Assembly (NCBI GenBank): GCA_044892525.1
Contig: CM097885.1
Location: forward strand, 31,746,001-31,810,000
From: Schmidtea polychroa
Taxonomy: Eukaryota
Length of the DNA stretch: 64,000 nt
Direction of reading: 5' to 3'
Shown: positions 8,660 through 9,326 of the stretch, piece by piece
How positions within the stretch are numbered: the stretch's first letter is position 1
Layout of the letters: every line of letters starts with the position of its first letter
The notes under the pieces: generated by a model
The model's database searches: none
Told to the model about the DNA's origin: nothing
The model's input: only the letters and a program-made list of their open reading frames with translations
Translations under genes and position numbers: made by a program

Positions 8660-9252
8660 TTTGATCGCAATCAAACTCCGGAGTTGATCTTTATCCGATT
8701 ATTGATTTTAAATTATATAAATTAAAAAATAAATGAAAAATAGTAAAACTGCTCTGAGGGGACAGTGGTATTTTTTTTTTTTTTTCACTGTCCCCTCAAC
8801 AGTTTTTTTGATCCGGATCATTTCAACCTCTTTCGTTTATCAAATCTCTTCTAATATACAAGCTGGCCAGACTCATACATCAGAATCAATCCGATAATAG
8901 CAGCACACCTTATTATTCGCTTCTCGCTCGAATACGATTTCATCGGCGTTTTAAGCGTGCTGCTCGAAAGTACAAATGAATTCGAAAGTGAATCCGAAAG
9001 AGGTCCGAAAACAACTGAGAAATAAATGTGCACATTAAAGAATCGATCCGGGGGTGTTCGAAAGACAGGTGGCGATAATTACCGGTTCGCCACCATCACC
9101 CGTTTCAATAATTTTTTTTTCATATTTATGTTTAAAAATAAAATAATTAATAAAATAAATAAAATAAAATAAAATAAAATAAAAATAAATAAAATAAAAT
9201 ATAAATCTAAGATACCCACACTATTATTTTCAAATTTTAAAAAAAAAAAAAA

Positions 9253-9326
9253 CTAACCACAGTTAGGATTTGAACCGCTATCCATTTGAACCACTGTGCC
9301 AGTCTAGCCCACTGCGCTATCTTTCT
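9253..9326 (-). ncRNA. Candidate Pol III (tRNA-type promoter) small RNA
   Basis: Minus strand: box A TAGCGCAGTGG (9319-9309), box B GGTTCAAATCC (9276-9266) at tRNA-like spacing, then T14 (9252-9239); no valid cloverleaf. Confidence 0.55.

Follow-up and report, generated by a model that had tools for sequence, protein, structure and literature searches.

A degenerate tRNA-type Pol III unit, possibly acting in cis, in the terminal inverted repeats of a Polinton family

Introduction

Why does a Polinton carry the promoter boxes of a tRNA gene next to the start of its DNA polymerase gene? We analyzed a stretch of 64,000 nucleotides from Schmidtea polychroa ("the window"). On its minus strand, near the start of a gene for a protein-primed DNA polymerase B (pPolB), there is an A box, a B box, and a run of Ts. 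The original prediction was that this locus, which we call cassette 1, encodes a small Pol III RNA that is divergent from pPolB and analogous to the VA RNAs of adenoviruses; the fallback was a TFIIIC-bound site beside the polymerase promoter. Adenoviruses are a virus lineage related to Polintons, and Polintons are seen as the ancestors of adenoviruses. Their VA RNAs are abundant when infection is active, and they block PKR, Dicer, and Exportin-5.

Results and Discussion

Promoter boxes and terminator of cassette 1

The features that had been predicted on the minus strand were all borne out: the A box (TAGCGCAGTGG), a second A-like box, the B box (GGTTCAAATCC) after a 32-nt gap, and T14 (Table 1). 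Cassette 1 has the A and B boxes at tRNA-like spacing, and the oligo-T after the B box, that define a type 2 Pol III unit. Its B box and its A-B gap are those of the host's tRNA-Cys(GCA) gene. The predicted RNA of the window copy is 74 nt, from 9326 to the T-run.

A strict pattern (A box, B box, and T5) matched once in the 64-kb window, and none of 200 resamples of matched composition contained it. A relaxed scan for A..B pairs found two sites in the window, cassette 1 and 9092-9039, against a mean of 0.1 and a maximum of 1 in 60 resamples.

Three features had been missed earlier: the location of cassette 1 within a terminal inverted repeat (TIR), the second A/B unit at 9092-9039, which we call unit 0, and an extra B-like box at 9292-9282. 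The extra B-like box is only 16 nt from the A box, which is too near for a canonical partner, and it is not present in the paralogous unit X (described below).

Table 1. Features of the window, and of other places in the genome that are discussed in the text. Positions are in the window unless a locus (L) or contig (C) is given.
Feature	Position	Strand	Remarks
Left TIR of family A	8408..9347		~940 bp; starts AGTAGT; holds cassette 1, unit 0, folded body, GC hairpin
Terminal ~220-250-bp units	8408-8662; 21843-22092; L227 about 2604-2823
GC hairpin with A-rich loop, then T4, T5, T6	8724..8802	-	predicted 3' end of the 363-nt read-through RNA from unit 0
Folded RNA body	8826..9004	-	~180 nt; terminal stem and three arms, one pre-miRNA-like; no internal T4
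Unit 0	9039..9092	-	A 9092-9082; B (with A54) 9049-9039; 32-nt spacing; predicted start near 9099
Cassette 1, degenerate tRNA-type Pol III unit	9239..9326	-	predicted 74-78 nt RNA plus terminator
T14 terminator of cassette 1	9239..9252	-	T6-T9 in most other copies
B box of cassette 1	9266..9276	-	32 nt past the first A box
Extra B-like box	9282..9292	-	replaces anticodon arm; overlaps the second A-like box
Second A-like box	9291..9301	-
A box of cassette 1	9309..9319	-	one recurrent variant site (R position) across 47 units
pPolB	9457..13773	+	PF03175
Packaging ATPase	18131..18940	+	PF04665
PLA2-like domain fused to retroviral-type integrase	18952..20403	-	PF08398, PF00665
Double jelly-roll (DJR) major capsid protein	20433..21719	-	PF21738
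Right end, from sister family B	21795..22092		TIR about 300 bp; no Pol III unit
Host rDNA spacer arrays	L278 7297-8261; L280 6929-7650; L282; L284; L286	antisense to rRNA	3-5 degenerate A/B/T units
Host tRNA arrays	C1:269.25 Mb; C4:55.02 Mb; C4:76.66 Mb; C140/C333/C474

Cassette 1 lies in both inverted repeats of a Polinton family

The element at 8408-22092 is a Polinton/Maverick, with pPolB, an integrase, a packaging ATPase, a DJR capsid protein, and TIRs. We searched the genome (781 Mb, with four very large contigs) with a 29-nt cassette pattern and found 958 exact matches; a control gave 0. The family itself has thousands of copies. In all 40 of the first-listed matches, the cassette is flanked by Polinton sequence on both sides: the downstream flank corresponds to the segment 9347-8408, and the upstream flank is either the start of pPolB or the capsid side of the element. 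Because of these flanks, we place cassette 1 at the inner edge of the ~940-bp TIR, pointing outward at both ends of the element. Left and right TIRs are 88-99% identical over their main match (13 pairs).

This location changes how the predicted divergence from pPolB should be read. At left ends the cassette is indeed divergent from pPolB (in the window, the ATG of pPolB is 137 bp from the A box, on the opposite strand), but at right ends it sits behind the capsid gene. Since the cassette is a part of the TIR, a particular tie to the promoter of pPolB is not supported.

The window copy is a chimera, with the left end of family A and the right end of a sister family, B, whose pPolB is about 73% identical. 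No matching 6-bp target duplication was found at the ends of the window copy. There are other A/B chimeras (L142, L148, and L168-L169), and the swapping of modules and ends between families looks common. Also, a unit of ~220-250 bp closes all three kinds of termini. The two ends of this unit are inverted repeats that start with AGTAGT, which would allow either end of an element to fold back.

A Polinton in this genome can do without the cassette. At 8/8 left ends of family B, the TIR runs straight into the pPolB leader, with no cassette. Five of 7 right ends of family B also lack it, and the other two carry the family-A module by recombination. Scans for A..B pairs found none in two whole family-B elements and none in the window's second Polinton (45-60 kb). 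Because family B and the second Polinton both lack the cassette, it is dispensable for a Polinton here.

We noticed two other features of the window. The second Polinton (45.2-59.6 kb), which has no Pol III unit, contains a 158-aa ORF at 46682-47158 (minus strand). Also, there are broken reverse-transcriptase and GIY-YIG-like ORFs at 28425-30299 (minus strand), which look Penelope-like by eye and are flanked by inverted repeats (28177-28461 and 30572-30856).

The boxes are conserved across copies and in an older subfamily

To describe the spread of the cassette, we use samples of places that all lie in the first part of contig C1. Among 43 consecutive TIRs that were picked by an unrelated downstream motif, a strict scan finds the cassette in 42, and the 43rd has two diverged units. 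Among 20 places that were picked by unit 0 and that have no exact match to the cassette pattern, 17 have a cassette, 2 have a damaged one, and 1 has a truncated TIR. Finally, we chose 11 places because they failed the exact pattern: 8 have variant cassettes, 1 has lost the 5' half, and 2 have lost the cassette by internal deletion.

No free, SINE-type copy of the cassette was found at 40 + 43 + 20 sampled places, all of which are Polinton TIR sequence. We therefore rejected a SINE: independent insertions with their own flanks, body, and tail were seen at none of these places (40/40, 43/43, and 20/20 are within TIRs). As the original argument against a SINE retrocopy noted, the cassette ends in a T-run instead of an A-tail.

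Across 47 units, recurrent variants (those shared by at least three copies) are found at 2 of 22 box positions and at 18 of 57 other positions (p = 0.046, which is modest evidence because the copies are related). The two variable box positions are the R position in the A box and the final letter of the B box, and both are consensus-compatible. The core of the B box is invariant in 46/47 units; its last letter is off consensus in 15/47. Tandem duplication of cassette units is common, and gene conversion among such units can give a false appearance of constraint.

An older subfamily gives a longer view. It has 30 loci, with pPolB proteins that are 65-73% identical and capsid proteins that are 82-90% identical, and it has another terminus. 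In these elements, two tandem units (X and Y) are followed by unit 0. X and Y share 20/22 box letters as compared to 35/55 letters elsewhere (p = 0.024), and they have 33-nt spacing. In a tally of 20 X units, with a pattern that demanded T4 or longer, 13 have an identical B box and all 20 are followed by T7-T9. Both boxes, the spacing, and the T-run have been retained in the older subfamily while 35-45% of the remaining letters have changed.

In cassette 1, the A box matches that of X and the middle matches that of Y (30/32), and fused forms are present (L251 and L252). This suggests that cassette 1 probably arose by fusion or recombination of the older tandem units X and Y.

The retention of boxes, spacing, and T-run, among copies and in a diverged subfamily, argues for the predicted element-encoded type 2 Pol III unit. 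The prediction also implied that the boxes and their position would be conserved in related Polintons. This is so for the family copies and for the older subfamily, but not for sister family B or the window's second Polinton.

The predicted RNA of cassette 1 has no conserved fold

ARAGORN found no tRNA in the whole window, and Rfam found none in 8500-10000 (E ≤ 10). As had been anticipated, neither tool sees a cloverleaf with an anticodon arm in cassette 1. The T-stem and the acceptor stem are not kept.

A hairpin between CACAGT and ACTGTG had been proposed just before the terminator. It does form in the minimum-free-energy fold of the window copy, but it is neither significant (z = -0.85) nor conserved: all six pairs are present in 16/47 units (3 were not scorable). 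For the RNA of the window's cassette 1, z-scores relative to shuffled sequences were -0.85 and -0.61, and other cassette 1, X, or Y RNAs scored 0.08, +1.89, and -0.38. For comparison, the host's tRNA-Cys scored -2.6 and its tRNA-Trp scored -1.5. The middle and the ends of the RNA differ among the paralogues X, Y, and cassette 1.

Adenovirus VA RNAs are described in excerpts of PMC7589676 as being about 160 nt, with a terminal stem, a central domain, and an apical stem. The predicted RNA of cassette 1 is 74-78 nt, and this architecture is not seen in it. Because the stem is not kept and there is no folding signal, the VA-RNA analogy is not supported for cassette 1.

A neighboring unit precedes a body that is predicted to fold strongly

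Unit 0 has 2,828 exact matches in the genome (the control gave 0), and its boxes are kept in the older subfamily. It is on the same strand as cassette 1 and 230 bp apart from it in all subfamilies examined. Reading through from unit 0, the predicted RNA of the window copy runs from 9099 to 8737 on the minus strand (363 nt) and contains the folded body. The folded body has a z-score of -6.48 on the minus strand, as compared to -1.16 on the plus strand, and 13 G.U pairs. In 31 copies that were chosen for diversity, all recurrent stem changes in the folded body keep the pairing. In 19 sequences drawn from the two subfamilies, pairing is 96-99% in helices 1, 2, and 4, with mostly one-sided changes. 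The 72.7% pairing of helix 3 in alignment A2 understates or blurs this helix, as it is misaligned between the subfamilies; in single folds, its site is a 7-bp stem of other sequence. The middle arm has a different sequence, which is again paired when sequences are folded singly.

In the window copy, a T4 at 9011-9008 lies just ahead of the folded body. This T4 may stop part of the polymerase, because T4 is the first T-run of the host's tRNA-Cys and tRNA-Trp genes. In a copy from the older subfamily (L227), unit 0 extends through the folded body, for 336 nt, with no T4 (z = -5.45). The layout of the TMERs of murine gammaherpesvirus 68 (MHV68), with a tRNA-like head and then hairpins in one T4-free unit, is found in L227. 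In the window copy this layout is interrupted by the T4, and the head of unit 0 has no cloverleaf score. Rfam returned no meaningful match to cassette 1, to unit 0, or to the folded body. As judged by these predicted folds, unit 0 with the folded body (9099-8737) is a better candidate for a VA-like or TMER-like RNA than cassette 1 is. The interest in an RNA thus shifts from the 75-nt cassette 1, which is the weaker candidate, to its folded neighbor.

We also considered whether Pol III could read on from cassette 1 to unit 0 and the folded body, and rejected this: it would be blocked by the cassette's own T-run and by eight further T4 or T5 runs.

Contigs from two sequencing runs of one study cover both cassette 1 and the folded body. 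The run type is unrecorded (we guess RNA), and the start, strand, and level of a transcript are not readable from contigs. In contigs from the same study, there are loose ends of A17-20 at the 3' edge of the folded body, but a genomic A-run is present there in 48/100 matches, and we draw no conclusion on transcription from these contigs.

Similar units in the rDNA spacer, and the tRNA donor

At many right ends, there are two more A/B/T units (units 2 and 3) between the capsid gene and the TIR. We rejected the idea that these are paralogues under selection on the element. The stretch that contains them matches the intergenic spacer of the host's rDNA at 91-97% identity, in 5/5 rDNA repeats and antisense to the rRNA. 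As both units match the spacer, they are not evidence of selection on the element. We infer that the element captured them from the spacer. This direction is the simpler one, since the stretch is present in all five rDNA repeats but in only some elements. In contrast to units 2 and 3, cassette 1, X, Y, unit 0, and the folded body have no match in the five rDNA repeats examined. Many family-A copies also have a small coiled-coil-like ORF (L002 1260-1530, plus strand) between the rDNA-derived units and the right TIR; it is absent from the window copy.

Spacer unit 2 passes Rfam's cut-off for tRNAs, with 32.4 bits, and it resembles tRNA-Cys (p = 0.004). The 3' side of the cassette variants was compared to the host's tRNA-Trp, with an uncorrected p of 0.018 for the best variant and 0.25 for the window copy (Trp, Cys, Lys, and Arg were compared), so the likeness to tRNA-Trp is only suggestive. 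The host's tRNA genes occur in long tandem arrays of a single isotype, with 993 pattern matches for Cys and about 860 for Trp, in units of 281 and 284 bp.

What might cassette 1 do?

What we observe for cassette 1 is a pair of boxes with tRNA-like spacing, a T-run, a place in the TIR, an outward direction, more constraint on the boxes than on the rest, and no conserved fold. Since the boxes, spacing, and terminator are constrained and the fold is not, it is likely the binding and transcription of cassette 1 at its own site that matter. The explanation that we tentatively prefer, and to which we would give a little less than an even chance, is that this degenerate type 2 Pol III unit acts in cis, from both TIRs, as a boundary or open-chromatin element. 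TFIIIC and TFIIIB would bind the boxes, and Pol III would make a short, unstructured, U-tailed RNA. The occupancy by Pol III would hold open a boundary between the terminal module and the promoter of pPolB or of the capsid gene, by analogy with tRNA genes at chromatin barriers. The barrier activity of tRNA genes depends on the A and B boxes and on the Pol III machinery (excerpts of PMC7990762). Planarian Polintons are targets of piRNAs and H3K9me3, with piRNA-linked repression of chromatin (excerpts of PMC8532177). Also, we count in favor of a role in cis that the host's rDNA spacer keeps an array of similar degenerate A/B/T units, in 5/5 repeats. Of the original fallback, the idea of a TFIIIC site fits best, as a prediction, but the link to the polymerase promoter is not supported.

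Some observations count against a role in cis: family B and the window's second Polinton have no cassette, the p values are modest, and the copies are related. The conserved terminator and start region would fit an RNA product equally well.

A broader reading, which is possible but rather unlikely, is that both TIRs carry a dedicated Pol III module. In it, the units that consist only of boxes would keep the ends open against piRNA-guided silencing, and the tRNA-headed, hairpin-rich RNA of unit 0 (340-360 nt) would be a VA-like or TMER-like counter-defense. If true, this would be a first for Polintons, and the system would be supplied with degenerate Pol III units like those in the host's rDNA spacer, captured repeatedly.

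Among the alternatives to a role in cis, the one that survives best, though we consider it unlikely, is that cassette 1 is carried as a neutral passenger: tRNA-like host DNA (of the rDNA-spacer type or a SINE head) would have been captured long ago, copied together with a young TIR, and homogenized by conversion. The same family did recently capture rDNA-spacer units, family B and the second Polinton manage without the cassette, and among the 11 places chosen because they failed the exact pattern, 3 have lost all or half of the cassette. But a passenger would not be expected to keep its boxes, spacing, and T-run where 35-45% of other letters changed. Also, neither cassette 1 nor X, Y, or unit 0 is in the five rDNA units examined, and no free SINE copy is among the sampled places.

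It is more doubtful that cassette 1 serves unit 0, with extra A and B boxes that would concentrate the Pol III machinery and with the folded RNA of ~340-360 nt as the product. The constant strand and distance of the two units fit this, as does the T4-free unit 0 of the older subfamily, and the TIR module travels as one block between the three kinds of termini. However, the T-runs exclude read-through from cassette 1, the window copy has a T4 ahead of the folded body, and nothing ties the two units together causally.

The least probable alternative is that cassette 1 encodes a short RNA directed in trans against host defense, as a VA-RNA or a vtRNA-like decoy: a complete promoter and terminator are kept across subfamilies, the unit is clustered with a structured-RNA candidate as in VA-I/II or the TMERs, and a single vtRNA acts alone in MHV68 (excerpts of PMC4337559), but the RNA would be half the length of a VA RNA, with no folding signal, no tRNA fold, a stem that is perfect in a third of the units, and a middle and ends that differ among paralogues.

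A family of several thousand copies whose TIRs carry conserved Pol III signals would allow a direct test of whether such elements use the Pol III machinery against host silencing. The family also supplies the host genome with thousands of potential sites for TFIIIC.

Comparison with known systems

The heads of tRNA-derived SINEs are degenerate, tRNA-like A/B regions with very high copy numbers. Unlike these, cassette 1 has no independent insertions, body, or A-tail; its T-run follows straight after, and it is copied within a DNA element.

In the open literature that we searched, we found no report of Pol III box units, small RNAs, or a boundary module in the TIRs of Polintons. A term search of PMC8097293 found no mention of tRNA or Pol III. 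Relatives outside of this genome were not found by capsid protein in a collection of viral contigs, by the exact unit-0 pattern in viral contigs (a weak search), or by the exact cassette pattern in metagenome contigs (also a weak search).

Excerpts of PMC12220804 describe tRNA genes in Polinton-like viruses and virophages, so tRNA-type genes are carried by other relatives of Polintons. But those tRNAs are detected by ARAGORN or Rfam and are read as codon compensation, while cassette 1 escapes both tools and cannot decode.

In barriers formed by tRNA genes or TFIIIC sites (excerpts of PMC7990762), as we propose for cassette 1, it is the A and B boxes and the assembly of Pol III that matter, not the RNA, and the sites lie at the edges of domains. 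The known cases are host genes, though, whereas cassette 1 is degenerate, carried by an element, and symmetric in both TIRs, and its barrier role is putative.

Adenovirus VA RNAI and RNAII have internal A and B boxes, a T-run terminator, tandem units, and a proposed origin from tRNA (excerpts of PMC7589676), all of which resemble cassette 1; but cassette 1 is half the size and has no conserved stem. The folded body next to unit 0 does have a terminal stem and arms, but there the boxes are upstream of the folded part.

The TMERs of MHV68 lie clustered close to one end of the genome; they are tRNA-like type 2 Pol III units, look-alikes of tRNAs that are not charged (excerpts of PMC4337559 and PMC8223928). 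In TMERs a tRNA-like head is followed by hairpins, which would fit unit 0, and the authors also allow for an effect of the promoter in cis. The heads of TMERs keep the tRNA structure for RNase Z, while cassette 1 has neither the fold nor a downstream hairpin. Also unlike MHV68, the Polinton is integrated, in an invertebrate host.
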